From an uncultured Solirubrobacteraceae bacterium (lineage in GTDB: Bacteria; Actinomycetota; Thermoleophilia; Solirubrobacterales; Solirubrobacteraceae): a stretch of DNA of 35,316 nt. Numbering within the stretch: the stretch's first letter is position 1; each line of letters starts with the position of its first letter. Of this stretch, positions 5,128-20,247 are shown piece after piece. The notes beneath the pieces were generated by a model, which ran no database searches, was not told where the DNA came from, and saw only the letters and a list, made by a program, of their open reading frames with translations. The stretch spans positions 1 through 35,316 of the forward strand of contig CAZPQW010000031.1 of the NCBI GenBank assembly GCA_964588985.1, written 5' to 3'. The translations under genes and the position numbers were made by a program.

Positions 5128-5697
5128 TCAAGGATGCCACTCGAACGGCAGCTCGGCGGCGATCTCGCGTAAGCGCGGCGCCACCGCGTCGCGCTCCGAG
5201 ACCGTCAGCTCCGCCGTCGGCAGCGCCCACTCGATCGCGATGTCCGGATCGTTCCACGCGATCCCACGTTCGACCGCGGGGTCGTAGTAGGCGCTCTGCT
5301 TGTAGATCACGTCCGCCACGTCGCTGAGCGCGCAGAAGCCGTGCGCGAAGCCGATCGGCACGTACAGCTCGCGCATGTTCTCGTCGTCCAGCTCCACCCC
5401 CGCCCATTCCCCATACGTGGGCGAGCCCCTGCGCAGGTCGACCGCCACATCGAGGATGCGCCCGCGCGCGCAGCGCACCAGCTTGGCGACCCCGTCGCCG
5501 ATCTGGAAGTGCAGGCCGCGCACCACCCCGCGCGTGGAGCGCGAGTGGTTGTCCTGCACGAACGCCTGCTCCGCGGGGATGCCGGCCTCAGCGTGCCACT
5601 CGCGCCTGTAGGTCTCGATGAAGAAGCCCCGCTCGTCGCCGTGGATCGCTGGCTCGATCGCGACGAGGCCGGGGATACGGGTCGGAAGGACGCGCAT
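5128..5697 (-). CDS. rmlC: dTDP-4-dehydrorhamnose 3,5-epimerase
   Basis: DERGFF, FVQDNHSRS..GVVRGLHFQ, KLVRC..G.ILDVAVDLRRGSPTYG, GFAHGF. Confidence 0.97.
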   Translation of the reverse strand: MRVLPTRIPGLVAIEPAIHGDERGFFIETYRREWHAEAGIPAEQAFVQDNHSRSTRGVVRGLHFQIGDGVAKLVRCARGRILDVAVDLRRGSPTYGEWAGVELDDENMRELYVPIGFAHGFCALSDVADVIYKQSAYYDPAVERGIAWNDPDIAIEWALPTAELTVSERDAVAPRLREIAAELPFEWHP

Positions 5698-5873
5698 TGC
5701 CTGCAGAGACTAGCCATAGATCCTCGGATTTGACCTGTTGAGCGTTTGTCCAGCGTCTTCGAGTACGCGTGAGTACTTAACCCGGATCGATGTGAGAGCA
5801 TGCGTCCCAGCGGGCCCTCGGGTTTGCAAGGCGGCGAGCCTCCTGGGACGTGTGCACGATCCGGCCCAGAGGT

Positions 5874-6779
5874 ATGGCGACATTTTTCACTGACAAAATG
5901 GTCTTTTTCCACCTCCCGAAGACCGGAGGGTTGTGGATTGCGGAGGCCATCGAGGCGGCTGGCGTGTCGACACACAGGCCGGACCCACTCGGCGACCAGC
6001 CGTACTCGAGTCATGGGCACGCCGACCTGCAGGAGGTGGACGTCGGCGAGCGTTTCAGCGTCGCGTTCGTCCGCCACCCGTTGGAGTGGTGGCGCTCCTA
6101 CTGGGGCCACCGTATGCGCACCGGCTGGCGGACAGACCACGGAGTAGACGTCGCCGCGGCGAGCGATGACTTCAACGAGTTCATCACGAGAGCCATCGCC
6201 CACCGCCCGGGCTACCTCGGCGAGATGGTCGAGTCGTTCGTGGGCTCCCCTCGACCGAAGGTCGACTTCGTCGGGCGCTTCGAGCACCTCGTCGATGACG
6301 CCTGTCTTGCTCTTCGGCTCGGCGGAGAGCCTTTCTCAGAGCCGGCTCTCAGAGCGCAACCACGCTGCAACGCAAGCGATCGCGAGGGATTTCCGGCGCT
6401 CTACCGACGCGACGTCGCACGGCGACTGGCCGAGGCAGAGCATCGCACCATCGAGCGCTTCTACGCCTATAACCCAATCCCCGCCCACCTGCTCGCAGAT
6501 CAGCCGGTGCGAGGGCATGCGCCGCCTGCCCGCAGCCTCGAGCGACACACGTTGACAACCGTTCGCGGTCGGCTGCAGCGCGCAGAGGAACACGTGCGCA
6601 GCCTCGAGTTGGCACTCGAGCGCTCACGACGATCCGAGGCCCACAGCGAGGCGGCGCTGGAGCGGGCCAGAGTCGAGCGCGACCGGGCGATGAAGGACCT
6701 GGCATCGCTGCAGAACAGCCGCCTCGTACGCCGCTCCCGCGCCGTGCGCGTCGCTTACTATCGAGCCCGCGCGCGTTGA
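5874..6779 (+). CDS. Sulfotransferase-family protein with C-terminal coiled coil
   Basis: PAPS 5'-PSB-like FFHLPKTGG, 3'-PB-like FVRHPLEWWRSYW, and VDFVGRFEHL. Heptad-like tail LQRAEEHVRSLELALERSRR..VERDRAMKDLASLQNSRLVRR. AGAGG precedes ATG 5874. Confidence 0.75.
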   Translation: MATFFTDKMVFFHLPKTGGLWIAEAIEAAGVSTHRPDPLGDQPYSSHGHADLQEVDVGERFSVAFVRHPLEWWRSYWGHRMRTGWRTDHGVDVAAASDDFNEFITRAIAHRPGYLGEMVESFVGSPRPKVDFVGRFEHLVDDACLALRLGGEPFSEPALRAQPRCNASDREGFPALYRRDVARRLAEAEHRTIERFYAYNPIPAHLLADQPVRGHAPPARSLERHTLTTVRGRLQRAEEHVRSLELALERSRRSEAHSEAALERARVERDRAMKDLASLQNSRLVRRSRAVRVAYYRARAR

Positions 6780-6790
6780 CCCGCCGGCAG

Positions 6791-8536
6791 TCAGGCGGGA
6801 GCGGAGCGCCTTCCCCGAACGAATACGCCCACGAGCACCAGCGCGAGGACCAGCAGCGATGCGAACGTGCCGACCATCCCGAGGCGCAGAGCCCGCGACG
6901 ACGTCGTGGAGAACGACAGGGTCTTGTGTTCTCCAGGCTTACCGGTAATCCGCACAACCATCACCGAACGACCGTACGCCCCGCCGGGTTCGAGCGGAGT
7001 GCGTCCGACCGGCACGGCGCCGCTGACGGTCACGAGATACGGCCCGGCGGTGACGTTGGTGGCAACGGTTCCCTCCTGCGAGACCACTATGGGATACCTG
7101 TAGGTCGCGTTGAACGGGCTCGCGGGTAGTTCTACCGCCGGCCGTGCCACCAGTGGGGTGCCACCCACGAGCTGGCTTATCGTCGGCTTGACCACAGGTG
7201 CCGAGCTGTCGGCGAAATCGGCTCCGCTGTAGTAGCTGCTCGGAGGATTGACGGCCGATGAGAACACTTCCGTGCGGTCCTTGAAGTAGAAGGATGGCGT
7301 ATGCCACACCTGTCGTGTGGCCAGGGTCACGCTTACCAGCGCCACGAGCACGAGCGCCATCTCGGCCCAATGCCGTCGCCGTACAGGAGCCCGCTGGAGC
7401 ATCAACAGCGCACACGTCACGAGCCCGCAACCCGCCAGGGTCACGTAGATCACGAGGCGGAATGGAAACTGAAGGTTGTTCCACGGCTTGGGTAGGGCCC
7501 CCAACACGCCAGGAGACAAGACCAGCCAGATCAGGAGGGCCAGAAGCGCGATCAAACCCACAGCCGCTCGCTTGATGGGACCGGGCACCACTCTCCACGT
7601 CGCCGCCACGACGACGAGCGCCCATGCAATCGCAAGCACCGGGGCCTGCGCCTGAACGTCACCCGTGATCCAACTCGGATCGACCGTATCGCGAAGTACA
7701 CCAAACAACACTCCTGGCGTTGAGTACCACAATTGACTTATTGCGGTATCGGTGCCATGCAGGATACGATTGTGATAAGCCAGCGTGGGAATCAGGACCC
7801 ACGAGTTCACACCGAGGCCGGCGACTCCCACGCCCCCGACCGCAGCCACGCGGCGCCATTTCACCCCAGCTACGCGCCAAGCACTCGACAGCGCGAGGCC
7901 CAGCAGGGCGAGAAACGTGGTACCCCAGACGAGCGTGAGGGGATGACTGCCCGTGAACAGCACAACGGCGATGACAAACACCGCCAGATGCGTTACACGC
8001 CAGCGCCTCGCGCGAACGAGGTACACCGCACAGGCCACCACGAGTGGGATCGCCGACGTGCTGACCGTCTCACCGAAATCCCCCCTCCCGTAGATGTTCG
8101 TGACATAGTAAGACGAGGTCACATAGAGGATCGCCGGAACGTGCGCGCGCCACTGAGACAAGCCGAGCTGACGGCAGATCCACAGCCAGCCCGCATAGGC
8201 GCCGACAATTGCCACGATGTAGGTGAAGACATACGCGGCGAGAGGATGCTCGCCGCTCACGGTGGCCAGGAAGCCAACGGCAGAAAAAAGCGTGCCTCCG
8301 TAGAACAGATACTGTGGAAAGAAGGCACCGATCCCCGACTGCACGAAATACGACGGGTGACCTAGCGTTCTGATGTTCAGGCCCTGCTCCCAAACCAGCC
8401 AGAGGTTGTTGGACCAGTCCGAGGCATAGGGCCGAGATGTGACGATCATCGGCGCGATGAGCAGTCCGATGACAACCACAGACAGCAATCCGTACATACC
8501 TCCTGATACGGATTGCATGTGGGCCTTGAGTCGCAA
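6791..8536 (-). CDS. Polytopic membrane protein, GT-C-like (PTPS-related/YfhO-type)
   Basis: More than 10 TM segments; SDWSNNLW after TM1; LFYGG, TNIYGRGDFGE and LQFPFR motifs; extracytoplasmic domain before the last TM. Exact start uncertain. Confidence 0.75.
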   Translation of the reverse strand: MRLKAHMQSVSGGMYGLLSVVVIGLLIAPMIVTSRPYASDWSNNLWLVWEQGLNIRTLGHPSYFVQSGIGAFFPQYLFYGGTLFSAVGFLATVSGEHPLAAYVFTYIVAIVGAYAGWLWICRQLGLSQWRAHVPAILYVTSSYYVTNIYGRGDFGETVSTSAIPLVVACAVYLVRARRWRVTHLAVFVIAVVLFTGSHPLTLVWGTTFLALLGLALSSAWRVAGVKWRRVAAVGGVGVAGLGVNSWVLIPTLAYHNRILHGTDTAISQLWYSTPGVLFGVLRDTVDPSWITGDVQAQAPVLAIAWALVVVAATWRVVPGPIKRAAVGLIALLALLIWLVLSPGVLGALPKPWNNLQFPFRLVIYVTLAGCGLVTCALLMLQRAPVRRRHWAEMALVLVALVSVTLATRQVWHTPSFYFKDRTEVFSSAVNPPSSYYSGADFADSSAPVVKPTISQLVGGTPLVARPAVELPASPFNATYRYPIVVSQEGTVATNVTAGPYLVTVSGAVPVGRTPLEPGGAYGRSVMVVRITGKPGEHKTLSFSTTSSRALRLGMVGTFASLLVLALVLVGVFVRGRRSAPA

Positions 8537-8644
8537 AGTGACGTTCAGCCCGACGTGGAGAGGCGGCGGACGAGCCGTCAGACTACCAGCAGCTGATGCG
8601 GCGAGTGCGTTGACGGCCTCGAATGAGACCAGGCGCCGGGGCGG

Positions 8645-9763
8645 CTAGAAGATCTTGACGAGGATCGTCTGGGTGATCGTGTTGCCGCCGACAGTCACGG
8701 CCAACGTCATGCGCAGACCGTGGTGCTTACGGATCAAGCTCACGATCCTCGGCGACACGCGCATCGGAAGATGGTTGGTCTTGTTGCCCGTGAGACTGAA
8801 GGTGCTCTGCCCGACGCTCGCGACCTTGCCCGCGAACGTCAGGGTTGCGACCCCGGAGCATCCCTGGACGGGCCTGCAGTAGACCGCGATCGAGACGGCT
8901 CGATGACTGTTGATGCCGTCAGTCTGCGGACTGACCCTGATCGGCGGCAGGACGGGAGGCAGGCCAGCGGTGCCGCCGGGGCAGATGTGCGTGGCATCGG
9001 GTCCCGTGCCGAGCGTCATCTGCATCATCAGTTCCTCGTTGCGCGCGGCGGCGAAGCCATCCATCGCGCTCGTGTCGGAGGCGGCCATGATGTCGCCGTT
9101 GTTGGTCCCATCGCCCCTGATGAACGAGGCGAGGGTGGATCCCTGCACCGGCCCGAGGACCTGATAGGGAACCCCGCTCTGGTAGGTGTGTTCGACGAAG
9201 CCGCCCTCGTCGTTGAGGTCGACGTAGTCGCCTGCTGACACGCACAGGTTGACCGGTTTGTAGGTCGTGACGGTGGAGCCGCTGGCTTCGTTCTGGCCAC
9301 ATACCGGGATGTCGTACGGCTGCGAGCTGAGATTGACCTTGGCGCCGCCGCCCGGAAGTGGGGAGATCGACTGGAAGTGGACCTGGGTCAGCGGTGGCGG
9401 GCCTCCTGGCGTCGGCTTGGCGCAGCCCTCCAGCTTGATGCTCAGAGCCTGACCCGTCGCCGGGGCCGCAGCTTGGGTGTCCCACAGGGCTGTATCAGCA
9501 CCGTAGTGGTAGGTGTGGACCACGCCGTTTGGCGCTTCGGGGGAGGCCGGAACGTGTGTGTCCGTGCCCTGGTAGTTGAGGTTTTCTGCGGTGTTCAGGG
9601 TCGCCGGCACCGCGAGCGGGCTGCCGAAGGTCGTGATCGCGGCCGAGCTGAGCGCCGGCGTGAGGACCGCTGAGAGGCAACAGAGCAGGACCGCCGCGAG
9701 CGCGGCTCCCGCGGATAGGCGCTGCATACGGTGGACTGCGCGGAGGTTAGCGTGAGCGGTCAT
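8645..9763 (-). CDS. Secreted Cys-containing beta-rich protein
   Basis: Signal-like AALAAVLLCCLSAVLTPALSSAA; T/P/G-rich beta sequence with several Cys; basic C-terminal domain containing YCRPVQGCSG. Start may be ATG 9727. Confidence 0.8.
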   Translation of the reverse strand: MTAHANLRAVHRMQRLSAGAALAAVLLCCLSAVLTPALSSAAITTFGSPLAVPATLNTAENLNYQGTDTHVPASPEAPNGVVHTYHYGADTALWDTQAAAPATGQALSIKLEGCAKPTPGGPPPLTQVHFQSISPLPGGGAKVNLSSQPYDIPVCGQNEASGSTVTTYKPVNLCVSAGDYVDLNDEGGFVEHTYQSGVPYQVLGPVQGSTLASFIRGDGTNNGDIMAASDTSAMDGFAAARNEELMMQMTLGTGPDATHICPGGTAGLPPVLPPIRVSPQTDGINSHRAVSIAVYCRPVQGCSGVATLTFAGKVASVGQSTFSLTGNKTNHLPMRVSPRIVSLIRKHHGLRMTLAVTVGGNTITQTILVKIF

Positions 9764-9795
9764 GGTGCGTGATTCGGCATCGGCGCCCTTGAGCC

Positions 9796-10968
9796 TTGAC
9801 CGGATCGATCGCCAGCGGACGGGTATCCATGTCGGGGATGCGTTCGGCCATATCTACTAACTTTGAGGTGGTGCTCGTCGAAGACCGAGAGGCGCAAGGC
9901 GGCGATTTGGCGCTCCCCCCCGGACGGCCTTGGAGCAGACGAGGCCTGCCGTCGCGGCCACCGGCCAAGCGATCGCGACTGCTCCTGAACGCTGTGACGA
10001 TCCTCGTCACGCTGCTTTTCTCGTACGTCGCGTTGAGCAACATCAACCTGTCGCTTGCGTGGCGTGCGTTGCGCACGAGCAACTACTGGTGGCTTGCCGC
10101 GGCGCTGATCGCCTTCGGCTTGGGCAACGTCGCCCGCGCCCTGCGCTGGCGCGCGCTGTTCGCTCGCGGCCGCCGACCGCCCATCGGAGCGGTCGCGACC
10201 GCGATGATGATCGGCTACCTCTACAACAACATCCTGCCTGCCCGGGCCGGCGAAGCGGCACGGGTTGTGGTGCTCACCCAGCGCAGCGACTCGGCGCCTG
10301 TGGAGATCGTCGGCACCGTGGTGCTGGAGCGTTTGTATGACGTGCTCGCGATCCTCCTCATCTTCTTCGCCGCCGAGCCCTGGCTGCCGCACGTGAGCTG
10401 GTTCGGCGCGGCAGCCGTCGCAGCGCTCGTGCTCGCGCTGCTGATCGCTGCAGCCGCAACGGTCCTCGCGGTCTTCGGCGACCGCCCTCTACGGCTGCTG
10501 CTGAAGCCTCTGCGCCGGCTGTCGCTCTTCTCCGGAGAGCGGCTCGAGCGAACGATCGCCGAGCTGGTGCACGGCCTCAGTGGGCTGAGGCACGCGAGAC
10601 TTGCGCTCGAAGCGTCCATGTGGACGATCGCCGCTTGGATCTTCACGGCGCTGTGCTCGTACCTCGTGAGCCTCGCCTTCCATCTGCATCTTCCGCTCGC
10701 CTGCGGCGTGCTCATCGCCGTGGCGGTCGGGCTGGGCATGATCCTGCCCTCCCCACCGGCCGCGGTCGGCGTATTCGAGGGCGCGGCGCTGATCGCATTG
10801 AGCGCATACGGCATCCCCCACTCCTCCGCCCTGCCATACGCCGTTGTGCTGCACCTCGTCAACTTCGTGCCATTCGTGCTCGTGGGAGCACTCACGCTGC
10901 ATTACAGCTCACGCCATCCTCGACATCCTGGGATCGGCGAGGCCACATCTGCCGCGCCTTCGACGTGA
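9796..10968 (+). CDS. UPF0104 / lysylphosphatidylglycerol-synthase-TM family (flippase-like) membrane protein
   Basis: RALRWRAL, NNILPARAGEAAR, ERLYD and PSPPAAVGVFE motifs. True start probably lies downstream of 9796. Confidence 0.88.
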   Translation: MTGSIASGRVSMSGMRSAISTNFEVVLVEDREAQGGDLALPPGRPWSRRGLPSRPPAKRSRLLLNAVTILVTLLFSYVALSNINLSLAWRALRTSNYWWLAAALIAFGLGNVARALRWRALFARGRRPPIGAVATAMMIGYLYNNILPARAGEAARVVVLTQRSDSAPVEIVGTVVLERLYDVLAILLIFFAAEPWLPHVSWFGAAAVAALVLALLIAAAATVLAVFGDRPLRLLLKPLRRLSLFSGERLERTIAELVHGLSGLRHARLALEASMWTIAAWIFTALCSYLVSLAFHLHLPLACGVLIAVAVGLGMILPSPPAAVGVFEGAALIALSAYGIPHSSALPYAVVLHLVNFVPFVLVGALTLHYSSRHPRHPGIGEATSAAPST

Positions 10969-12947
10969 TGCGGGACATAGGCAGCACAACGAGCCCACCC
11001 GAGAGAACGACGCGGCAGCGGAGTTCCCCCACAGTTGCCTCAGCACGCGTCGTCAATCGCCGGTCTCTGGACCGTCTCGCTCCGCTGGCTTATGTGATCG
11101 TCCTGGTCGGTAGCGCGTTCGCCGCCTACTGGGCGATGTTCAGCGAGTTCGCGCCGTACGACGACTCCGGGTACTTCATCCACTCGATTCGTCTTTTCAG
11201 CCAAGGCCAGCCTCTGTATGACCGTGTGTTCACCGACTACGGCCCGTTCTCGTACGAGCTGTGGGCGGCGGTGTTCGCGATTGCCGGTCACACCGTCTCG
11301 ACCGACTCTGGCCGTCTTGCCGTGGTGGGGCTATGGCTGCTGACGAGTCTCGTGCTGGGCATCAGCTGCCAGCGCCTCACCGGACGCCTTGCGCTTGGGG
11401 TCGTTGTCCAGGCGCTGAGCTTCACGGTGCTCATCGCATTGAACGCGGAGCCGATGCATGCAAGCGGCGTGGTGTGCGCACTGTTCGCCGCCACAATCGC
11501 ACTCGTCAGCTTCGTGCTGCCGAGCCGTCCACGAGCCGCTTTCCTCACCCTCGGCGCGCTGGTCGCCGCCCTGGGCCTGACGAAGGTCAATATCGGCGGC
11601 TTTGCCGGCATTGCCGTCGCCTACGCCACCGTGATGGCGCTGCCAGCGCTGTGGCGACACGACCTGCTGCGCTGGCTCGCGGCTGCCGCGCTCGTCGCCG
11701 TCGGACCTGTGCTGATGTGGAGCAACCTCACTCAGCAATGGGCCCAGAACTACGCGATTCTGGCTGTCGCGGGGGGCACAGCGCTCATCCTCGTGAGCGA
11801 CACCTCCGACGCGACCAATGACGTAAAGGAGGCTGCCAGCCAATGGGTGGTGTGGCTGCTGACCGGCTTCTTCGCATGCGCGGCAGTGGTCGTCGGGATC
11901 GTCTTGGCGCTTGGCACGTCGCTCGGGGCATTGGTTCGGGAGACCGTCGTGGTGCCCATGCATCAGGGCAATGCGTTCACACTGCCGATCAGTCTCACTG
12001 GAGATGTCATCTACTGGGCGGTGGGCGCCGTCGCCGTGGCGTGGGTGGTCCGGCGCATGCGAGCCAGGTCCGGGATCACCCATCGACCGGGGCTGGTCGG
12101 TGCGCTCGGTCGAGTGTTCGCGGCGCTCGGCATCTGGTTTTCGATCGTCGCCGCCGACCCGCTCAACATCTCGCCTGAGAACGCCAACTTCGCGCTCGCG
12201 ATCGTCCTCGCCTGGGTGGCGGCGATTCCCTCGACCCGCGACGACGGCAGCCTGCAGGGCCGTTTTGCACGCCTGTTCATTCCGTCGCTCGCCGTTCTCC
12301 AGGCGCTCATGGCCTATCCGGTCGCCGGCACCCAGCTGATGTTCGGCTCGCTGCTGTTCCTCGTGTGTGGCGCGATCTGCTTCGCCGACGGTTGGAGCGA
12401 TCTCGAAGCCTGGGGCTCCGCGCAAAGCATCCCGGACGGCGCGCTGGCTCCACGTACCGTCATGGTCGCGCTCGCCACCGCGTTGGCTGTCGCGTTCAGC
12501 TTCCAATACGTCGAGCGCCCGATGGAATTCTGGGGAGACGCCTACGCAACCAATCCGAGCCTGCGGATCGCCGGCGCGACGAGACTGCACCTGCCCGCCG
12601 CTCGAGCGTCGGCTCTCGAGCAAATCACCGCGCTGCTACGGGCCCGCTGTCGTAGCGTGATCACGCTGCCGGGCCTGCTTTCGTTCAATCTCTGGAGCGG
12701 CCTTCCCGCACCCAGCGGGCTCACCGCGGAGCCGTTCTGGCACCTGCTGAGCGCCTCGCAGGAACTGGCCGCCCTTGCGAGCGCGAGGGCGGCCACCGGA
12801 CTCTGCGCGGTCCGTAACGACGAACTGGCGGCGAGCTGGGACAACGGCAAGCCGCCGCCACAGACTCCTCTGGTGCGGTTCATCGACGAGGAATTCACGC
12901 CGATCGCGCAATACGAAGGCTACGTGGTGAGCGTGCGCCGCTCGTGA
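10968..12947 (+). CDS. GT-C-like polytopic membrane glycosyltransferase
   Basis: TGATG coupling to the upstream gene gives the start at 10968. PYDDSGYF..GQPLYDRVFTDYGP after TM1; LTKVNIG; many TMs; soluble C-terminal domain. Confidence 0.78.
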   Translation: MRDIGSTTSPPERTTRQRSSPTVASARVVNRRSLDRLAPLAYVIVLVGSAFAAYWAMFSEFAPYDDSGYFIHSIRLFSQGQPLYDRVFTDYGPFSYELWAAVFAIAGHTVSTDSGRLAVVGLWLLTSLVLGISCQRLTGRLALGVVVQALSFTVLIALNAEPMHASGVVCALFAATIALVSFVLPSRPRAAFLTLGALVAALGLTKVNIGGFAGIAVAYATVMALPALWRHDLLRWLAAAALVAVGPVLMWSNLTQQWAQNYAILAVAGGTALILVSDTSDATNDVKEAASQWVVWLLTGFFACAAVVVGIVLALGTSLGALVRETVVVPMHQGNAFTLPISLTGDVIYWAVGAVAVAWVVRRMRARSGITHRPGLVGALGRVFAALGIWFSIVAADPLNISPENANFALAIVLAWVAAIPSTRDDGSLQGRFARLFIPSLAVLQALMAYPVAGTQLMFGSLLFLVCGAICFADGWSDLEAWGSAQSIPDGALAPRTVMVALATALAVAFSFQYVERPMEFWGDAYATNPSLRIAGATRLHLPAARASALEQITALLRARCRSVITLPGLLSFNLWSGLPAPSGLTAEPFWHLLSASQELAALASARAATGLCAVRNDELAASWDNGKPPPQTPLVRFIDEEFTPIAQYEGYVVSVRRS

Positions 12948-12989
12948 TGCACGCGACAGAAGCGACCCCGACTTAGGACCTGGTCTGCG

Positions 12990-14732
12990 CTAGCCGGCGA
13001 CCGCACAGATGGTCAGCGCAGAGGAGGAGACGACCTGCGCGTACCACGGCTGTGGGGCTGTGTCGGGCGGGATCGTCAACCTCCCCGTCGAGCGCGGCCC
13101 AAGCGCCGATGCGATCGGGGCGAACGCGTCGCCGAAGCGCCTCAAGGCGAGCGTGGCCGGGGCTGTGCCGCCGTCACCGAGGACCACCCCACTGCGCGGC
13201 AGCAAGATCACGGCGCTCATCGTCGCCCCCGGCCCGGGCGAGAACTCCGTACAGCCGCCGAGCCGAGCCTGCGTGCCTCCGAGGAGTCCCAGCACCTGCG
13301 GGGCGGGCGCAGACGATCGCACCTTGGTCGCATACGGCGTGAGCTTGGGCGCCTCCAGCGCCAGCAGGACACCATCGGCCGCCCCGCGCGAGACGGCATC
13401 GGCCGAGGTGATCGTGGCTGGGCTGTCGGCCGGTGAGGAGCCGATTGCTCGGACGGTGTGCAGGTAGGTCCCCGCAGCGATCTGAGGCGCACGCTGCGAG
13501 TCCGGCTGATATCCCGGCGGTGCGTACGCCGCCGCGATTTCCAACGCTCCGAGCTCCGCCGCAACGACCTTCGAGGTCGACCGCAGGCCGCTCGCCCCGT
13601 TGTACAGCGGCGTCAGCCCGGTGATCGCGCAGAGGCCCACCAGCACCGCCGCCGACGCCATCGCTTGAGGCGTGATCGTGAGGCCGCGCAGCAGCTCGAC
13701 GCCGACCAGCACGACCACCACCGCGCCGAGGTACACATAGCGGCTCGTTTCCGGGGCCGAGGTGGTGGAGCGCGCCGTCGCCGTGATCACCCACAGCGAG
13801 AGGCCCGTCGCCAGCAACCCGGCCAGCCGCGCCGATATCGGCGTCGATCCGGACAAGCGCCGGAGCAAGACCAGAAGTCCGACCAACGCAAGAGGGCGGC
13901 CCCAGTCGAGCCCTCGTCCCACGAGAGCACCAACCGCCGCAGCGGCCAGGTCCACGGCGAAGCCCGGCGCGTTGATCAAGCTGCCGCTGGTTACCTCGCT
14001 TTCGCCATGGCCCAGGTACCACGCGACATACAGGAGGGCCGGCACCGCGACCACAAAGCCCCGATTCCAATCGCGCCGCCACGCCAGCTCGACGGCCACA
14101 CCCACTACAAGCGGTATGCCGAGGCTCGAGCTGCCAACGGCCAGCACCAGGCATCCCGTCGCAAGCAAGTCCCAGGCCCGATCGCGGCGTTCGAGTAGAC
14201 ACCACGCGGCCAGGCCACCGACAATCGAGAGCAGGTAGCCAATCTGAAAGGCCCAGAGCAGGTCTTCCCACGCTGCCCCGAGGAACAAGATCAAGGACGC
14301 GGCAAGCAGCGCTGGGAGATTGGCGATTCGTCGTCTGGCAAGCGTGAAGATCAGGCTGGCCGCGAATAGATGCAGCACGACGACCGCTAGACGAAAGACC
14401 GTGTAGTGGTCGAGCCCGACGAGGTGGAAGAGGACCTTGTAGGCCGCCACAGGGAACACCGAGATGTTGCCCACGTGCGCCGCCAGCAGGGAGTGCAGCC
14501 CTCCTCCGTAATCGTGGGTGACGAAATCCCAGTCGTCGTAGAAGAACGTGAGCTCGCGCCCCATGTGCAGCAGCAGGGCCGCCTCGATGAAGATCAACCC
14601 AGCCATCGCCCATCGGGCGTTCCGGTCGATCGCAGCGACGGTGCCCTCGAGCCATCTCGACGCGTGCGGCACTGTCGAAGAAGCCACCGTCTGACTCTCC
14701 TCGAGCAGCGGCGGATCGGCCAGAGGGCCCAT
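12990..14732 (-). CDS. GT-C-like polytopic membrane protein
   Basis: TGATG coupling with the GT2 stop gives the start at 14732. FFYDDWDF after TM1; WEDLLWAFQ; SRYVY; extracytoplasmic C-terminal domain. Confidence 0.75.
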   Translation of the reverse strand: MGPLADPPLLEESQTVASSTVPHASRWLEGTVAAIDRNARWAMAGLIFIEAALLLHMGRELTFFYDDWDFVTHDYGGGLHSLLAAHVGNISVFPVAAYKVLFHLVGLDHYTVFRLAVVVLHLFAASLIFTLARRRIANLPALLAASLILFLGAAWEDLLWAFQIGYLLSIVGGLAAWCLLERRDRAWDLLATGCLVLAVGSSSLGIPLVVGVAVELAWRRDWNRGFVVAVPALLYVAWYLGHGESEVTSGSLINAPGFAVDLAAAAVGALVGRGLDWGRPLALVGLLVLLRRLSGSTPISARLAGLLATGLSLWVITATARSTTSAPETSRYVYLGAVVVVLVGVELLRGLTITPQAMASAAVLVGLCAITGLTPLYNGASGLRSTSKVVAAELGALEIAAAYAPPGYQPDSQRAPQIAAGTYLHTVRAIGSSPADSPATITSADAVSRGAADGVLLALEAPKLTPYATKVRSSAPAPQVLGLLGGTQARLGGCTEFSPGPGATMSAVILLPRSGVVLGDGGTAPATLALRRFGDAFAPIASALGPRSTGRLTIPPDTAPQPWYAQVVSSSALTICAVAG

Positions 14733-15565
14733 CAGCGAGCTCCCGAGCCGTCGGTGAACCTCGATCGTGCTCGCCCGTGGCCGTTGGCGCTCACCAGGTC
14801 CGGGTTTGGGCGCTCGCGATCGCCGTCCGGCCGGTCTGGGCGATGGTAGTCCCCGCGACTGAGGTGATGCTCGAGGAACACGTACAGCACGATGAAGAGA
14901 TACCGGCTCCCCATCTCTTGGAGCTTCAGCTTGGAGACTCCATATGCGCGGTTCGTCCACGAGATCGGCACCACCGCGTAGGAGTGCCCACGGACGATCG
15001 CCTTCAGCGGCATCTCCACCGTCAAGTTGAAGTGGTTCGAGAGCAGCGGCTGGATGTGCTCGATGACCTCGCGCCTATACGCCTTGAAAGCGTTCGTCGT
15101 GTCGTTGTAGCCGTGACGGAACAGAACGCGAATCCCCAGATTCACCAGCCGATTGAGAATCAGCTTGACTCTTGGATAGTCGTTCACCTTTCCACCGCGC
15201 ACGAACCGTGAGCCAAATGCGCAGTCGTAACCTTCTTGAAGAACCTCGTAGTAGCGCACGAGATCCTTCGGCGAGTCAGACAGATCGGCCATCACGATCG
15301 CTACCGCGTCTCCTGTGAACTCGTCCAACCCGGCACGCACGGCCTGACCGAATCCCGGTGGGCGAGACGAGCGCACGCAGCGCACCGCCGGGTTGGCCCT
15401 CGCGATCTTCAGCACTGCAGCACTGGTGCCGTCACTGCTGGCATCGTCGACCACGACGATCTCGTAAGGGATCTCGCGGGCCTCCAGTTCCGCGACCAGC
15501 GCCTCGACGGTCACACCGATCGACTCCTGCTCGTTGTGAGCAGGGATCACGACCGACAGCTTCAT
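14732..15565 (-). CDS. GT2 polyprenyl-phosphate glycosyltransferase (DPM1/GtrB-like, no TM tail)
   Basis: [51 protein letters not shown]. Confidence 0.9.
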
Positions 15566-16635
15566 ACGCCGGCGACCCAGCGCTCGACGTTACGATCGTG
15601 TATCTGGCGAAGGATGTCCCGAACGTCGTGGTTGATGTCCCACCCCGGATAGTCCTGCTTGAAGGGCTCCAGGTCGCTGATCCACCAGCGGTGATCACCG
15701 ATCCTGTTCTCCTCGCCGAGGCTCCACTCGAGCTCACGCCCGGCGATCTCCTGGCACAGCTCGATCGCCTCCAACATCGAGCAGTTGCTCTGCCGCCCGC
15801 CGCCGATGTTGTATACGGCGGCGCATCGCGGCTCGCGGTGAAAGGCATCGAACGCCGCCACCAGGTCAGCTGAGTGGATGTTGTCGCGCACCTGCTTTCC
15901 TCCGTAGCCGAACACCGTGTATGGCTCACCGGTCACCGTGCAGCGCATCAGGTAGGAGAGGAACCCGTGCAGCTGAGTCCCGGCGTGATTGGGGCCGGTG
16001 AGGCAACCTCCACGAAAGCAGACAGTCCGCATCCCGAAATAACGGCCGTACTCCTGCACCAGCAGGTCTGCGGAGACCTTCGAGACACCGAAGAGCGAGT
16101 GGGTCGAGAGGTCGATCGACATGGATGTGTCGATTCCCTGGTGATAGCGATGACCTGCGGGTAGCTCCAAGCGCTGCTCGAGCTCGACGAGCGGAAGGGC
16201 GTTGGGGGTGTCCCCGTAGACCTTGTTGGTGGAGCAGAAGATGAAGGTCGCGCCGGATGAGTGACGGCGGGTGGCCTCGAGCAGGTTGAGCGTGCCGTTG
16301 GCGTTGACCGCGAAGTCGGTCTGCGGATCCGATGCCGCCCAGTCGTGTGAAGGCTGCGCTGCCGTGTGGATCACCAGCTCGATCTCCCCGGCTCGATCCG
16401 CGAAGATCCGCGCGACGCCATCGGCGTCTCGTATGTCCACCTCGAGCGAGCGAAACTCGTCGGGGTGGCTTCGCGTCAGCGCATCGGTGGTGTGGGCCGT
16501 CGAGGCTCCCGCTCCGAAGAACCTCGCGCGCATGTCGTTCTCGAGACCGATCACGTCGTAGCCGGCCTCGATGAAGTGCCGCACGGACTCCGAGCCGATC
16601 AGGCCTCCGGATCCGGTGACGATTGCTACAGGCAT
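15562..16635 (-). CDS. NAD-dependent epimerase/dehydratase, CDP-tyvelose-2-epimerase-like, with FxxxK in place of YxxxK
   Basis: [47 protein letters not shown] coupling to the GT2. Confidence 0.88.
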
Positions 16636-16647
16636 TTGGTCCTTTCG

Positions 16648-17751
16648 CTAGAGCGCGGCGGCAAGCGCGACTTCGTGCTCGACAATCCATGCATGGATGT
16701 CCGCCAAGATCTCATCCGGGCCACGTCGTGGGCGCCACTCGGTCATCTCGTACAGGTGGGTGCAGTCCGAAATATAGATCGGGATGTCCCCGGGGCGATC
16801 CTCCCCGGCGGGGCGGATATCGACGATCCTACCCGTGATCTCGGCACACAAAGCGGTCGTCTCCTGGAGCGACAGGCTGCAGGCCCGGCCGCCCCCGACG
16901 TTGACCGTTACCCCAGCCCATCGCTCACGATCCCGAAGCTGCTCATGGACGAGGTCGAGTAGATCGTCCACGTGCAGCAGATCGCGCACCTGCTTGCCGG
17001 TCCCGCCAAAACCGATGTAGGAGAGAGGGCGACCGAACTGATGAGCGAGCATCCAATACGTGAAGACGCCCTGGTCGACCTTGCCCATCTGCCAGGGGCC
17101 GGCGACGACTCCGCAGCGGTTGATCACGGCCTCGAGCCCGTACGTCTCGGCGTACTCTTCGATCAGGTGCTCGGCGCAGAGCTTCGTGGCGCCGTATAGC
17201 GTGCGCGCACCCGCAAGTGGGAACGTCTCCCCGATCCCGCGCTTGGACACACCCGGTACCGCCTGCTCGTCGCTCAGCTCCAGGCGAGTGTCGAGCTCGT
17301 CATAGGCGAGCCCCTCGAGCGCAGCCACGGGATACACGCGACTCGTGGACAGGAAGATCAGTTGGGCATCGGTGCGCCGTGCGAGCTCGAGACAGTTGTA
17401 GGCGCCCTCGAGGTTCGTGCGCACCACGTACTCTGGGCTTCCGTTCACACCCGCCATGACCGAGGGCTCCGCGGAGCACTCGATGATCGCATCGACCGAG
17501 CCCGCCTCCAGCAGGTCGTCCAGCTCGCGTACGTCGCCATGGAGGAAGCCCACGTTCGCCTCGCGCAGCCGGGGCAGATTGAGCTCGGAGCCGCGGCGAC
17601 GAAGGTTGTCCAGCGCGATCACCTCCCAGTCCGGATTGCCGGCGGCGAGACCCACGGCGAGACTCGCGCCGATGAAGCCTGCTCCGCCTGTGACGAGAAC
17701 GCGAAGCTTCGTGGGGTTCGTGTCGGGAGGAGTGGAGGGCGGCGCGGGCAT
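16648..17751 (-). CDS. NAD-dependent epimerase/dehydratase, CDP-tyvelose-2-epimerase-like
   Basis: TGGAGFIG, STSRVY, YGATK, GPWQMGKVDQG, GKQVRDLLH, RPGD. Confidence 0.9.
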   Translation of the reverse strand: MPAPPSTPPDTNPTKLRVLVTGGAGFIGASLAVGLAAGNPDWEVIALDNLRRRGSELNLPRLREANVGFLHGDVRELDDLLEAGSVDAIIECSAEPSVMAGVNGSPEYVVRTNLEGAYNCLELARRTDAQLIFLSTSRVYPVAALEGLAYDELDTRLELSDEQAVPGVSKRGIGETFPLAGARTLYGATKLCAEHLIEEYAETYGLEAVINRCGVVAGPWQMGKVDQGVFTYWMLAHQFGRPLSYIGFGGTGKQVRDLLHVDDLLDLVHEQLRDRERWAGVTVNVGGGRACSLSLQETTALCAEITGRIVDIRPAGEDRPGDIPIYISDCTHLYEMTEWRPRRGPDEILADIHAWIVEHEVALAAAL

Positions 17752-17841: not shown

Positions 17842-20247
17842 CTACCCGGTGAGGCGAGCCAGTTGCGGCTGTGTGCACGCCGGACCGCCCGGCGCGACGG
17901 GCACCCTGACGCCGGGATGCTGCCCGGCATCGCGACGCAGAGCCAGCGCGCAACCCGTCGAGACGCCCGGGTAGGTCGCGAGTTCGATCTCCACCTGACC
18001 GGCTTCCACCGGGTCCCGACGACGTTCGTAGTCTTCGATGAGCGCCACGCCCGCCGCGAGCGAGTCGGCCACGTCGCCAGACTCCACGAAGTACCCACGG
18101 CGCCAACGGTCGAACGCGGGCGTGTGCCCGGCCCCCCGCGCGGCGAGGGCTGCGAACAGCGCTCGACCGGGAGGCTGGATCGAGCTCAGATTGGTGATCG
18201 CCTGAGGCCAGGTCGCGTGACGCATCGCGAGTGCGTAAACGGCCGCGGATGCCTCGGGCGTGCCCGCTTCCGCTGGTATGCGGTGCTCGATCCAGGCAGT
18301 CTGCGCCGCCAGCCGTTCGACATCCGAAGGCCACGCACGCGCGGCCAGGCCCGCCAGTCCAGTCGTGGCTCTCGCGGAGGGGTCGAGTGCGCGCAGCGCT
18401 CTGGCGAGGGGCTCGGGCGACAACGACAGCTCTTCGCGCGTCAGCGTATAGCCACCGAGAGCCGCCATCGCCAGGTCCGAGCCGCTGCTCGGAAGATGGC
18501 GCGCTTGAGCGCGTTCCAGCCTGACGATCGCCAGGGCGCCAGCCTGCGCCGGCTCACCCGCTTCCAGCCACCTTTCCCTGAGCCCTTCGAGGGTGTGATC
18601 GTCGAGCTGTTCGGGCAACTCGCATCGAGGCGTGTCGGGCAGAAGGATCCGATAGAAGCCCGCGAAGGCGCGAATCTCGTAGTTGATCGCGAGGAACTCG
18701 TCGAGCAGGCGCGAGCCAACGTAAGCCGACTTCCCCGCTGGATAGCGGTAGTCGCCGTCGGCCTGGACGACAGGTGCGCGATCGCGGCACAGTTCAGCGA
18801 CCGTTCTCCGCTCGACGTCGGCCGCGTTGACCAGGCCGGGATCGTAGGTCAGCGGCCAGGCCGCCGGCGGCGCGTCGAGCAGGTACCCCACGATCGCGTC
18901 GTTGCTCCATGCGACGTCGTTGCGCAGCTCGACCGACAGCGTCGAGCGACCGTCCAGTCCAAGCGCGCGCCACTGGGCGACGAGCGCTGCCATCGATGCC
19001 GCACCGCCATCTTGCGCCATCGGGATCCTGTTGAACCCGGGAACCACGACGCGGTCATCAACCGGCGGTCGAGCGGTCCAGCTGTCATAGATCGTTCCCG
19101 GTGAGATCCCAGGCACGAACGGATATGCCACGAGGACGATCACCACAACCACCGCCCACGGAGAGAGGCGGCCGACGAGCAGCGCGCCGGCGACCCAGAA
19201 CACGGGATTGCCGATCTTCCCGTATGTAGTACTGAACCGCGCCGCCTGACCGTAAAGCACCACCGCACAGACCAGCAGCATGAACGGGGTCAGATAGCTG
19301 CGATCGCGCTGGAGCAGCCGGCGGCGCCCGGATGGTATGAGCAACATCGCACCTGCAGCGAGCGTCACCAGCGCCGAGAGGCCGTAGGAGCCCACCACGG
19401 TGGCTCCTGTGGATTCTCCGAGTTGCAGATGCAGAAGCCGATTCAGCCGATCCGTGATCAGGTGCCATTCGATCGGCTGGCCCCGCTGGGCGTGAAAGCC
19501 CGACGACGACGAGGAGAGCGTGTAGCGGACGAACCACCACAGATGGCGCCAGCCCCCGGTGATCAACACGATCAGCGTGGGCAGAGCGGCCATCACGAGC
19601 GCGGCCAGGCACAGAACAGCACGACGGCGCCCGCGCGCAAGCACGACCAGGAGTACGACCGCCCACAGCACCGTGAAGATCGCGTACTCGGTGCGTGCCC
19701 AGCCAGCCAGCGAGCAGATGAAGGCGGCCAGCAGCAGCTGCCTCGGGTGCTCCGCCGCCGCCGCCTGAAGCGTGCCCTCCGACGAGCGTCGCACCGCGCG
19801 ATCCACGATCAGCGCGAAGCCGAACAACGCCGCAAAGCCCATCGAATACCGCGGGGTGGCCGAGGTGATCGTGATCAACCCCACCAGCACACCGAGCGCC
19901 GGCCCGCACCGTCGCCACACCAGCGGCGTCACCAGGAGCGTGACTATCGCCGGAAACACGCCGTAGACGAGCCTCAGCGCGAACACCCCGTTCACTCCGA
20001 GAAGATGAGGAAGCACCCCCGGGATTCCCAGCCCGATGCCGTAGGGCTCGTAGAAATCCGTGTACGGAAGCTGCCCGTGCAGCAGGTAGGTGACGGTCGT
20101 GTACTCGATCCCGTCGTCGAAGCGCCCAAGCAGTTCCACACGGGCGGCGACCACCATGGTCACGTAACACCAGGTGGCCAACACTCCCCCAATGAGCCAC
20201 GGCAGCCAGGACGGGCTCCTCCAGCGGGGCGGCACGCGAGCGATCAT
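17842..20247 (-). CDS. GT-C-like polytopic membrane glycosyltransferase with a large C-terminal soluble region
   Basis: RFDDGIEY..GQLPYTDFYEPYG after TM1; many TMs; roughly 350 aa of non-TM C-terminus. Confidence 0.75.
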   Translation of the reverse strand: MIARVPPRWRSPSWLPWLIGGVLATWCYVTMVVAARVELLGRFDDGIEYTTVTYLLHGQLPYTDFYEPYGIGLGIPGVLPHLLGVNGVFALRLVYGVFPAIVTLLVTPLVWRRCGPALGVLVGLITITSATPRYSMGFAALFGFALIVDRAVRRSSEGTLQAAAAEHPRQLLLAAFICSLAGWARTEYAIFTVLWAVVLLVVLARGRRRAVLCLAALVMAALPTLIVLITGGWRHLWWFVRYTLSSSSSGFHAQRGQPIEWHLITDRLNRLLHLQLGESTGATVVGSYGLSALVTLAAGAMLLIPSGRRRLLQRDRSYLTPFMLLVCAVVLYGQAARFSTTYGKIGNPVFWVAGALLVGRLSPWAVVVVIVLVAYPFVPGISPGTIYDSWTARPPVDDRVVVPGFNRIPMAQDGGAASMAALVAQWRALGLDGRSTLSVELRNDVAWSNDAIVGYLLDAPPAAWPLTYDPGLVNAADVERRTVAELCRDRAPVVQADGDYRYPAGKSAYVGSRLLDEFLAINYEIRAFAGFYRILLPDTPRCELPEQLDDHTLEGLRERWLEAGEPAQAGALAIVRLERAQARHLPSSGSDLAMAALGGYTLTREELSLSPEPLARALRALDPSARATTGLAGLAARAWPSDVERLAAQTAWIEHRIPAEAGTPEASAAVYALAMRHATWPQAITNLSSIQPPGRALFAALAARGAGHTPAFDRWRRGYFVESGDVADSLAAGVALIEDYERRRDPVEAGQVEIELATYPGVSTGCALALRRDAGQHPGVRVPVAPGGPACTQPQLARLTG

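Follow-up and report, generated by a model that had tools for sequence, protein, structure and literature searches.

An extended SDR encoded in a 35,316-nucleotide window from an uncultured Solirubrobacteraceae bacterium has phenylalanine at the position of the catalytic tyrosine, and the substitution is conserved far beyond chance or error. The protein (F-SDR) probably relies on chemistry other than a tyrosine base and is probably not a dead partner of the canonical SDR encoded next to it (Y-SDR). We give a probability of about 0.5 to the reading that F-SDR is an independent working enzyme with a non-tyrosine base, and that Y-SDR and a glycosyltransferase (GT2) are an addition to it by which a GT-C protein obtains a polyprenyl-phosphate sugar.

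The four genes are located on the reverse strand. Y-SDR (16648-17751, 367 amino acids) is a canonical extended SDR with the motif LYGATK, and F-SDR (15562-16635, 357 amino acids) is a TyvE-like extended SDR with the motif HSLFGVSK, in which Phe182 is encoded by TTC at 16092-16090. The sequence-only reading had pointed out this difference between the neighbours, and the open reading frames, the codon and the alignment with the CDP-tyvelose 2-epimerase structure 1orr agree with it. The genes for Y-SDR and F-SDR are separated by 12 nucleotides, the stop codon of F-SDR overlaps the start codon of GT2 (14732-15565) in ATGA, and the stop codon of GT2 shares one base with the start codon of the GT-C gene (12990-14732) in TGATG. 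These junctions indicate that the four genes form a single operon. Because the GT-C gene starts with the ATG at 14732, its product has 580 amino acids as in the homologues, and not the 656 of the mechanically listed reading frame. A gene for an 801 amino acid membrane protein (17842-20247, reverse strand) is found directly upstream of Y-SDR, 90 nucleotides from its start, and a flippase-like membrane protein of the LPG_synthase_TM type is encoded on the opposite strand (9796-10968, forward), 2 kb from the GT-C gene. The genes sit within a Wzm/Wzt polysaccharide locus.

In a HMMER alignment, Phe182 pairs with the catalytic Tyr of YGCSK in 1orr. All 120 close homologues of F-SDR have Phe at this site, as do 126 of the 151 aligned rows from a search clustered at 50% and all 80 genomic loci, which represent ten phyla and 59-77% identity. 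These comparisons indicate that Phe is fixed, has not arisen by drift and is not private to the source organism; the private mutation or sequencing error that the sequence-only reading had allowed for, with Tyr in the homologues, is contradicted by them. Tyr was found at the site in ten of 99 complete rows of the subfamily, where His97, His217 and His223 are the same and Cys211 mostly so, so that either Tyr or Phe can stand against one and the same active-site background.

F-SDR matches the Pfam Epimerase family (PF01370, E 1.8e-40) and is 31% identical to Y-SDR. Its AF2 model (pLDDT 95.4) has 1orr as the top fold match, with TM scores of 0.87/0.92 and an rmsd of about 2 Å. The GxxGxxG motif (TGSGGLIGS) and STNKVYG are kept in the reading frame and in the alignment with 1orr, as had been read from the sequence, and so is Lys186. 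Nine residues do not vary among 40 diverse members (G8, G11, G14, R36, H97, S135, K138, F182 and K186), and T136 is almost invariant. In TaTyvE, the Lys of the triad and the segment Thr-Asn-Lys are described as essential (PMC13098431), and judging from the alignments the remaining requirements for cofactor and substrate binding appear to be retained in F-SDR. F-SDR is also more tightly constrained than the canonical Y-SDR: in 26 of 27 loci with both it shows the higher conservation, with a mean identity of 69.1% against 62.7%. His97 and His223 are specific to the subfamily and align with positions that contact the sugar in TaTyvE. They are candidates for an alternative base, as are His217 and Cys211, all four proposed from the alignment with TaTyvE. 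None of these four residues covaries with Phe among the 99 complete rows, and they therefore mark the subfamily and not a specific compensation for the lost Tyr.

Y-SDR matches the same Pfam family (E 3.2e-37), has the motifs YGATK, STSRVYP and AEPSV, and finds its top solved relatives in TyvE (9rl0, E 1e-30) and 1orr. GT2 matches PF00535 (E 1e-27), and the solved structures nearest to it, DPMS (5mlz, E 5.6e-25), ArnC and GtrB, are all of polyprenyl-phosphate glycosyltransferases. Its top NCBIfam matches, ArnC, PgfS and AglJ, are all far under their cut-offs, and no equivalog cut-off in NCBIfam was reached. The earlier assignment of GT2 as a polyprenyl-phosphate sugar synthase thus fits its solved relatives, and the proposed overlap with a GT-C gene is borne out by the TGATG junction and by the fold in the model. 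The polytopic 580 amino acid protein has homologues of about the same length that are all unnamed and without Pfam domains, with acidic D66 and D74 invariant. Its AF2 model (pLDDT 79.9) is predicted to have a GT-C fold, with EmbA/B/C, ArnT (5f15), AftB, AglB and PMT as top Foldseek matches (E 4.5e-5 to 4e-3, TM 0.29-0.42) and CBM29-like matches for its C-terminal beta-sandwich. The 801 amino acid protein has no Pfam or NCBIfam match at E<=0.001, only DUF6020 at E 0.044; about eight hydrophobic segments were seen within residues 1-390 in a crude scan, and it is possibly a further membrane glycosyltransferase.

Comparisons of gene neighbourhoods show that the association between the two SDRs is asymmetric: Y-SDR depends on F-SDR, and F-SDR stands without Y-SDR. 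Orthologues of Y-SDR were found in ten genomes of a class sample of 151 (14 with F-SDR and 137 others) and in three further genomes of the phylum, and in all 13 F-SDR lies within 2.7 kb. Within the class sample, the GT2 orthologue has the same distribution as Y-SDR and occurs in these ten genomes and no others. On the other hand, four of the 14 class genomes with F-SDR, all 96-99% complete, have no orthologue of Y-SDR anywhere in the genome at E<=1e-60, and among the 62 F-SDR loci flanked on each side by 3 kb or more Y-SDR is present in 27 and missing in 35. The grouping of Y-SDR, F-SDR and GT2 is not restricted to this locus but recurs across several phyla, in line with the sequence-only reading; the constant adjacency of the Phe protein to a YxxxK paralogue and this GT2, which it had proposed to test, does not hold, and the solitary occurrence that it named as evidence against its own proposal was found in part, in these 35 loci and four genomes. 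When the presence of Y-SDR and GT2 is mapped on the F-SDR tree, at least nine changes fall on well-supported branches and the context labels are interleaved.

In 11 loci without Y-SDR a WecG/TagA glycosyltransferase directly follows F-SDR, and in one locus it is fused to F-SDR; Azospirillum brasilense Sp7 has F-SDR both with and without Y-SDR, on two plasmids. Fusions of F-SDR with methyltransferase, GT2, GT11 or WecG domains were also found. The occurrence of F-SDR without Y-SDR and beside or fused to other glycosyltransferases makes it less likely that F-SDR is a pseudo-enzyme bound to that partner; the two-step route and the alternative base, which the sequence-only reading also named, are still candidates.

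The preferred reading is that the tyrosine hydroxyl is dispensable in the F-SDR subfamily. F-SDR would still bind NAD(P) and a diphosphate-linked sugar and would carry out its own step with another acid/base, and its product would be used as donor by the glycosyltransferase next to it or fused with it, whichever that is in a given locus. In this window and its relatives, the canonical Y-SDR and the DPMS/ArnC-like GT2 would be an add-on pair that always accompanies F-SDR. Y-SDR would follow with a redox reaction or epimerisation of the ordinary kind, GT2 would place the resulting sugar on polyprenyl phosphate, and the flippase-like protein would then carry the lipid-linked sugar over the membrane. 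On the extracytoplasmic side, the translationally coupled GT-C protein would pass it to a cell-wall polysaccharide. We infer this order of the two SDR steps, and likewise the sugar and its nucleotide. The LPG_synthase_TM protein (PF03706, E 1.2e-47; TIGR00374 flippase-like domain, E 1.4e-22) is a candidate for the flippase step, and weak homologues with 25-30% identity adjoin the GT2 orthologue in four loci.

Tyvelose itself is an unlikely product. The pathway had been reported as absent from the window, which holds for RfbF and RfbG, but both are encoded elsewhere in the genome, on another contig. RfbF was found in only four of the 14 class genomes with F-SDR and in 24 of the 137 others, so the F-SDR gene does not co-distribute with the CDP-glucose synthase.

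A non-catalytic role for F-SDR is an unlikely alternative. F-SDR could be an accessory domain that binds NAD and NDP-sugars and delivers, senses or gates donors for the adjoining GT2, GT26, GT4 or GT11, and Y-SDR would then be the sole true sugar-modifying enzyme of the operon. Known proteins with an SDR fold but no enzymatic function, such as NmrA (PMC2279256), likewise combine a lost Tyr with retained binding motifs, and F-SDR is repeatedly found beside or fused to glycosyltransferases of four families and to methyltransferases. However, 16 of the 62 loci with full flanks have no Y-SDR, no GT2 of this kind and no WecG/TagA glycosyltransferase within 7 kb of F-SDR. In two loci, drawn from the Verrucomicrobiota loci whose neighbours were scanned, F-SDR lies beside housekeeping genes, 6-phosphogluconolactonase in both and NIF3 or PMSR in one each. 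One enzyme that makes one donor is also more economical than one accessory domain serving four unrelated glycosyltransferase folds, and the domain order in the fusions of SDR, methyltransferase and GT2 resembles a pathway. Strong conservation and glycosyltransferase fusions would also fit a non-catalytic subunit that binds nucleotide sugars.

Somewhat less probable still is the proposal that F-SDR is catalytically dead and that a hetero-oligomer with Y-SDR, which makes the NDP-sugar for GT2, strictly needs it as a structural or regulatory subunit. The missing Tyr, the 12-nucleotide gap and the constant company of F-SDR in the 13 genomes with Y-SDR are in line with this, and mixed oligomers of the paralogues are conceivable because TaTyvE is described as a tetramer (PMC13098431). 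When the heterodimer was modelled, as the sequence-only reading had suggested, the median ipSAE was 0.57 (0.57, 0.61 and 0.51 in the single runs) against 0.00 for the best control, graded as weak support; at least 83% of the contacts agree between runs and the partner pLDDT is at least 85. Of 157 solved complexes in the calibration, 116 reached this mark, as did two of 215 mismatched pairs, and the range up to 0.60 holds just 18 of those 157 and both of the passing mismatches. Such a weak pass is expected of two paralogues of oligomeric SDRs through their likeness to solved SDR oligomers alone, and close cousins of a true partner pass too. The obligate partnership is weighed against by the loci and genomes in which F-SDR lacks Y-SDR, many with other glycosyltransferases adjacent or fused, by the greater conservation of F-SDR and by its invariant sugar- and diphosphate-contacting residues, which would not be expected of a mere scaffold.

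The least probable alternative is that both SDRs act after lipid loading: GT2 would transfer a hexose from a common UDP-sugar to polyprenyl phosphate, and Y-SDR and F-SDR would epimerise it on the lipid as in DprE1/DprE2 or ORF13 of Citrobacter youngae O2. Y-SDR does follow GT2 in its distribution and not F-SDR alone, and it adjoins GT2 with F-SDR one gene away in three genomes. However, the C-terminal domain that binds nucleotide sugars in TyvE is present in both SDRs, as are the Lys/Arg that contact the diphosphate, and F-SDR also occurs at WecG-type loci with no polyprenyl-monophosphate sugar synthase nearby. The precedent itself (Kelly et al. 2024, PMC11127046) combines genetic evidence that the SDR epimerase ORF13 determines which undecaprenyl-phosphate-linked pentofuranose serves a GT-C as donor with an argument, inferred there and not assayed, that ORF13 acts post transfer to the lipid.

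The best solved relative of both SDRs is CDP-tyvelose 2-epimerase (TyvE/RfbE; SDR1E, EC 5.1.3.10; 1orr, 9rl0; E 1e-31 to 1e-28), although the identity is just about 27-30%. F-SDR shares with it the Thr-Asn-Lys segment, the triad Lys and the fold, but has Phe for Tyr164, Pro-Ser-His for Val-Ala-Met and His for Gln205. Y-SDR has the Tyr, the Lys and a Gln aligned with Gln205 of TaTyvE, but Thr-Ser-Arg for Thr-Asn-Lys and Pro-Ser-Val for Val-Ala-Met. The residues aligned with Tyr203 and Asp204 of TyvE, which close over the cytosine, differ.

CapE, an extended SDR with MxxxK and measured activity (PMC3699295), is a precedent for an active enzyme of this kind without Tyr, and WbpM-type enzymes have Ser-Met-Lys (SMK) triads (PMC2279256). 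These are likewise extended SDRs of nucleotide-sugar metabolism; they are active, and in place of the Tyr of YxxxK they have a non-polar residue that never varies within the subgroup. However, their replacement is Met and not the Phe of the putative enzyme F-SDR, and they are UDP-GlcNAc 4,6-dehydratase/5-epimerases of the Polysacc_synt_2 branch, which the TyvE-like F-SDR matches weakly (E 4e-7). The adjacent SDR genes wbmF, wbmG and wbmH in Bordetella are also neighbouring paralogues in a surface-glycan locus, one of them with an incomplete triad; WbmF was proposed to act non-oxidatively on an intermediate from its neighbours (PMC2279256). WbmF lacks the Ser/Thr and F-SDR the Tyr, WbmF has a GMER-like Cys two residues past the missing Ser/Thr where F-SDR has Asn137, and the Bordetella locus has no coupled polyprenyl-phosphate GT2 or GT-C.

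The GtrA/GtrB/GtrC and pentofuranose systems (PMC11127046) resemble this locus: they combine a synthase for the lipid-phosphate sugar with a flippase and with a GT-C that modifies the completed polymer, and in the pentofuranose systems an auxiliary SDR adds to the range of donors. Here the synthase is a DPMS/ArnC-type GT2 instead of a PRPP-dependent PPPRS, an LPG_synthase_TM protein takes the place of MATE or GtrA as candidate flippase, and there are two SDRs, one without Tyr, and a GT-C without a Pfam family. Phe in place of the catalytic Tyr is a fixed mark of a bacterial family of tyvelose-epimerase-like extended SDRs that is large, highly conserved and unstudied.

In textbook accounts of the SDR superfamily, the tyrosine of the YxxxK motif serves as the catalytic base. 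The TyvE-like SDR encoded at 15562-16635 on the minus strand (F-SDR) has a phenylalanine at this site, and the substitution picked up in the sequence-only reading is real: alignment to the CDP-tyvelose 2-epimerase structure 1orr sets Phe182 on the tyrosine, with the codon TTC at 16092-16090. The Ser/Thr-Tyr-Lys triad is incomplete in F-SDR, where Thr136 and Lys186 are kept and Tyr is replaced by Phe182. It is complete in the neighbouring paralogue (Y-SDR, 16648-17751, minus strand), which has the canonical YGATK with Y186 and K190 invariant. The cofactor motif GxxGxxG is kept in F-SDR, with G8, G11 and G14 invariant in 40 F-type sequences, and the 23 Y-type sequences compared all share G22, G23 and G25. 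The two proteins are 31% identical to each other, score 139.3 bits (F-SDR) and 128.7 bits (Y-SDR) for the Epimerase family PF01370 against a gathering cut-off of 20.9, and have the CDP-tyvelose 2-epimerases 1orr and 9rl0 as their best solved relatives (E 1e-31 to 1e-28). The AF2 model of F-SDR (pLDDT 95.4) predicts a two-domain fold with a C-terminal nucleotide-sugar-binding domain and matches 1orr with TM 0.87/0.92 over 355-363 columns; other solved SDRs fit clearly less well (TM 0.71-0.80).

Phe182 is a family trait. Among the close homologues listed (82-100% identity, the window's own protein counted) Phe is found in 120 of 120. An exhaustive search of 50%-identity representatives gave 816 proteins at E<=1e-30. 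When the query and the best 150 of these 816 are counted, the site holds F in 126, Y in 10, L in 5, M, V and S in two each and T, I, Q and A in one each, and some of the rows with odd residues are visibly frameshifted fragments. A pattern scan with one genome per species gave at least 600 stretches, and 597 of the 600 listed could be confirmed. Its 80 best loci, analysed further, are spread over ten phyla at 59-77% identity, and Phe is present in every one. In 40 diverse members G8, G11, G14, R36, H97, S135, K138, Y140, F182, G183 and K186 are invariant, and T136, H179, C211 and H223 almost so. F is closer than Y to the copy in the window in 26 of the 27 loci where both genes are full-length (mean identity 69.1% vs 62.7%). 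Judged from these alignments, F-SDR is not decaying.

In one 740-aa representative of the family from the 50%-clustered search (P0175), an insertion of about 329 residues interrupts the FGxSK motif between Ala and Ser. The insertion contains a LAGLIDADG domain and has Cys as its first residue and Asn as its last, with Ser coming next. It looks like an intein, the removal of which would restore the FGxSK motif exactly. Inteins are usually located in the most conserved functional sites.

Variation at the site within the subfamily bears on the role of the tyrosine. Among 99 rows complete at 22 key columns, 78 have Phe, 10 have Tyr and 11 have another residue, and the Tyr-bearing rows keep H97, H217, H223 and mostly C211. 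Because Tyr and Phe alternate on an otherwise constant active-site background, the tyrosine hydroxyl appears to be of no importance to the function of the subfamily, whichever that may be. Residues that compensate for Phe by covariation were also sought among these columns; H97, H217, H223 and C211 are equally common in the 10 Tyr-bearing rows, and this candidate explanation was rejected. On this comparison the four residues are markers of the subfamily and not of Phe.

According to PMC13098431 on the CDP-tyvelose 2-epimerase TaTyvE, Tyr164 is the base for C-2 oxidation, and the Thr-Asn-Lys and Val-Ala-Met segments are highly conserved among TyvE-like enzymes. F-SDR differs from this in having Phe at the Tyr164 position, where Y-SDR retains Tyr, and it keeps Thr-Asn-Lys but has Pro-Ser-His for Val-Ala-Met. 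In Y-SDR both segments are changed, to Thr-Ser-Arg and Pro-Ser-Val respectively. His97 of F-SDR aligns to the Met of the Val-Ala-Met segment and His223 to Gln205 of TaTyvE, and these positions of TaTyvE are described as sugar contacts in the same paper. His97 and His223 are thereby candidate alternative bases.

The surroundings of F-SDR constitute a GC-rich (62-72%) cell-wall polysaccharide locus with a Wzm/Wzt ABC exporter, two very large GT2/GT4 fusion proteins, a DUF2142/PMT_2 membrane protein and several big membrane proteins without family assignment. Five genes lie head-to-tail on the minus strand: an 801-aa membrane protein (17842-20247), Y-SDR, F-SDR, a GT2 (14732-15565) and a second membrane protein, the GT-C protein (12990-14732). 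Y and F are separated by a 12-nt spacer, F and GT2 share an ATGA overlap, and GT2 and the GT-C gene a TGATG overlap. The latter overlap places the start of the GT-C gene at 14732, giving a protein of 580 aa, the same length as its homologues. A flippase-like LPG_synthase_TM gene (9796-10968) is found on the strand opposite to the GT-C gene. Close homologues of the genes in the Y-F-GT2 region, where named, come from Solirubrobacteraceae and Solirubrobacterales MAGs.

The proposal that a polyprenyl-phosphate sugar synthase and a GT-C enzyme follow the two SDRs is supported at the level of family for the GT2 and at the level of fold for the 580-aa protein. The GT2 belongs to PF00535 (E 1e-27), and its solved relatives at E<=1e-5 number eight, comprising Pyrococcus DPMS (5.6e-25), three ArnC, three GtrB and one unnamed glycosyltransferase. 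Its top NCBIfam matches are ArnC, PgfS, AglJ and dolichyl-phosphate hexose transferase, all below the equivalog cut-offs (the best, ArnC, at 75.8 bits vs 529). With regard to a membrane anchor or interfacial helices in the GT2, a crude hydropathy scan found zero 19-residue segments above threshold, and the translation has a short hydrophobic stretch near residue 225. For the AF2 model of the GT-C protein (pLDDT 79.9), nearly all Foldseek matches in roughly the first 28 ranks are GT-C enzymes (EmbA/B/C, ArnT, AftB, AglB, OST, PMT), with probability 1.00 for most and TM of just 0.25-0.42; CBM29 is the match for the beta-sandwich at its C-terminus. Two invariant residues, D66 and D74, follow directly after the first long helix pair and may be candidates for the acidic motif that GT-C enzymes have in their first outside loop. 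The protein has no Pfam or NCBIfam family, the relaxed Pfam search (E<=5) giving a chance-level match only, and its homologues listed are unnamed in 120 of 120 cases.

Lack of family assignment is shared by other membrane proteins in the window. Pfam gave no match at E<=0.001 for the proteins at 12990-14960, 17842-20247, 10620-12947 and 32396-34789 and the 372-aa ORF at 8645-9763, and NCBIfam none at the same threshold for the first three of these. At E<=5, Pfam gave DUF6020 for 17842-20247 (E 0.044) and PTPS_related for 6791-8536 (E 0.0014). No paralogy was detected by BLASTP among the seven window proteins compared. Besides the GT-C protein at 12990-14732, the window thus has four large polytopic membrane proteins of 581-801 aa lacking a Pfam family at E<=0.001, at 6791-8536 (minus), 10620-12947 (plus), 17842-20247 (minus) and 32396-34789 (minus); BLASTP detected no similarity among these four or between them and the GT-C protein. 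The 775-aa protein among them has homologues beside the Y-F-GT2 cassette in five other loci (L018, L024, L025, L030, L074). These four may be further unnamed membrane glycosyltransferases.

The sequence-only reading asked whether F always occurs beside Y and this GT2, and the comparison shows that it does not. The 80 loci were classed by tblastn within 7 kb (Y and GT2 at >=50% identity, WecG at >=30%), and a full-flank subset comprises 62 loci in which each side extends for 3 kb or more. F has both Y and GT2 as neighbours in 29 loci (26 of the full-flank subset), none of the three in 26 (16), a WecG/TagA family glycosyltransferase in 17 (14), GT2 only in 6 (5) and Y only in 2 (1). Thus 35 of the 62 full-flank F loci lack Y, as do 4 of the 14 F-bearing genomes of the same class. 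These neighbour counts rest on tblastn and RefSeq annotation, as simple ORF picking misjudged some genes in GC-rich loci, for instance merging F with upstream frames in L012, L016, L045 and L048. A Pfam scan of the neighbours found 11 loci with a WecG/TagA gene immediately 3' of F and one (L055) where the two are fused, and there are F representatives fused to methyltransferase, GT2, GT11 and WecG domains. The context labels are interleaved on the F tree, and the Y+GT2 label requires at least nine changes on well-supported branches; the tree is a quick maximum-likelihood IQ-TREE rooted solely by the very long branch of the Y outgroup, and neither donors nor an order of events are read from it.

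Genome-wide counts show the same asymmetry. Of 151 sampled genomes of the class, 14 have an F orthologue and 10 a Y orthologue (E<=1e-60), and the GT2 orthologue (E<=1e-50) is found in exactly the ten with Y. In all ten, Y and F are on one contig, 12 to 2679 nt apart, and the four genomes with F only are 96-99% complete. A sample of 301 genomes from the phylum added three Y-bearing genomes, each with F 47-699 nt from Y and two of them with GT2 adjoining. Of the genomes behind five F+GT2 loci without a nearby Y, two carry a Y orthologue at a distance of about 10 kb or about 150 kb, two lack one and one has a 38% relative only. These co-occurrences point to a one-sided dependence, in which Y and GT2 need F nearby and F needs neither.

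Some arrangements deviate from the cassette in the window. In one locus (L097, G059:C21:46000-53500, at 971-5965) Y-SDR comes first and is followed by GT2, a 621-aa unassigned gene and F-SDR, with overlapping stops and starts; this order, seen in some Solirubrobacterales relatives, suggests that Y and GT2 are the tighter pair, with F one gene off. Among the Verrucomicrobiota loci with scanned neighbours, two (L058 and L082, around 6200-9400) are different: F lies beside 6-phosphogluconolactonase and there is no glycan locus; NIF3 is near in the former and methionine sulfoxide reductase in the latter. The gene content hints at a housekeeping role for F in this phylum. Azospirillum brasilense Sp7 has Y (54% identity) and F (62%) in tandem at 5872-9868 of locus L098 on plasmid p5 (NZ_CP012919.1 130698-145753). 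The order there is GT-Y-F-radical SAM-GT, with a 577-aa radical SAM protein where GT2 otherwise sits and two glycosyltransferases of about 800 aa flanking the tandem. A second F copy on plasmid p2 has the order phosphoglycosyltransferase-F-WecG-GT4, and its surroundings resemble a D-rhamnan locus (GMD, reductase).

Among the options in the sequence-only reading, a putative alternative base or two-step route that would feed a polyprenyl-phosphate carrier and the GT-C protein is the best supported. In its widest form this reading would make the Phe-type subfamily widespread uncharacterised nucleotide-sugar enzymes that do without the universal tyrosine of SDRs and in which His97, His217, His223 or Cys211 would serve in acid/base catalysis. 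The product would be a sugar in the envelope glycans of at least ten phyla, transferred via WecG/TagA directly or through the dependent Y-SDR, polyprenyl phosphate and new GT-C enzymes. This full account is tentative, with a probability of roughly three in ten.

Two more specific proposals concern the sugar. The RfbF/G/H pathway was said to be absent from the window, which stands, yet RfbF and RfbG occur elsewhere in the genome. On contig C21 at about 45257-51500 (7257-13517 of locus L089) there are RfbF (438.8 bits, cut-off 300) and CDP-glucose 4,6-dehydratase, RfbG (459.9 bits), together with an RmlC-like 3,5-epimerase, another SDR and a Wzx-like flippase, a set that suggests a pathway to a CDP-6-deoxyhexose. 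Contig C15 has another match to CDP-glucose 4,6-dehydratase. In the class sample, RfbF was detected in 4 of the 14 genomes with F vs 24 of the 137 others. Since RfbF is not co-distributed with F, a CDP-sugar is unlikely as the general substrate. Judged by RfbF and RfbG, F-SDR does not regularly go together with a CDP-hexose pathway that runs on to 3,6-dideoxy sugars, which also separates it from TyvE. Public annotation of the F copies seen is solely 'NAD-dependent epimerase/dehydratase' or 'CDP-paratose 2-epimerase', and the latter label is probably wrong. The second proposal, F as an SDR-type substitute for WecB that would supply ManNAc donors to WecG/TagA, was dropped, although not disproved, because PF02350 (UDP-GlcNAc 2-epimerase WecB) and the F-WecG pair lack a complementary distribution: PF02350 is above cut-off in 4 of 5 genomes with the pair.

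Of the options in the sequence-only reading, F as the dead partner of a heterodimer is the least likely. Prediction of the F + Y complex gave a median ipSAE of 0.57 (runs 0.57, 0.61 and 0.51; best control 0.00; at least 83% contact agreement; partner pLDDT at least 85), graded as 'weak support'. The calibration comprises 157 solved complexes, of which 116 pass the mark, and 215 mismatches, of which 2 pass; at 0.60 or under are just 18 of the 157 and both passing mismatches. TaTyvE is described as a tetramer (PMC13098431), so two paralogues may reach such an ipSAE from likeness alone, and the score is given little weight in either direction.

The preferred reading, catalysis by an alternative base or a two-step route, has partial precedents. 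The literature describes the extended SDR CapE as active with MxxxK (PMC3699295), the adjacent Bordetella genes WbmF/G/H as including one SDR with an incomplete triad and a proposed non-oxidative action (PMC2279256), and systems that combine a lipid-phosphate sugar synthase and a flippase with a GT-C and have their donor altered by an auxiliary SDR epimerase (Kelly et al. 2024, PMC11127046). The system in the window combines themes of all three. Unlike them, it has the Phe substitution, a TyvE-like scaffold, a nested Y/GT2 add-on and a GT2-type synthase. Full-text searches, limited to main texts and covering few subscription journals, turned up no publication that describes a Phe-type TyvE-like SDR or a Y-F-GT2 cassette.

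Beyond the family itself, the analysis adds the dependence of Y and GT2 on F and the F-WecG pairing. The nested associations (F alone, F with a WecG/TagA glycosyltransferase, F with Y and a DPMS-like GT2) offer a practical starting point for experiments, and A. brasilense Sp7, which is cultivable and carries both F-WecG and Y-F arrangements, is a tractable test bed. With unnamed GT-C families and a candidate flippase, the locus widens the set of parts that Actinomycetota have for decorating glycans outside the cytoplasm. The F branch is very large, tightly conserved and multi-phylum, with Phe fixed and the features for binding cofactor and substrate all retained. It represents either a chemistry undescribed for TyvE-like enzymes or a new non-catalytic nucleotide-sugar-binding module.
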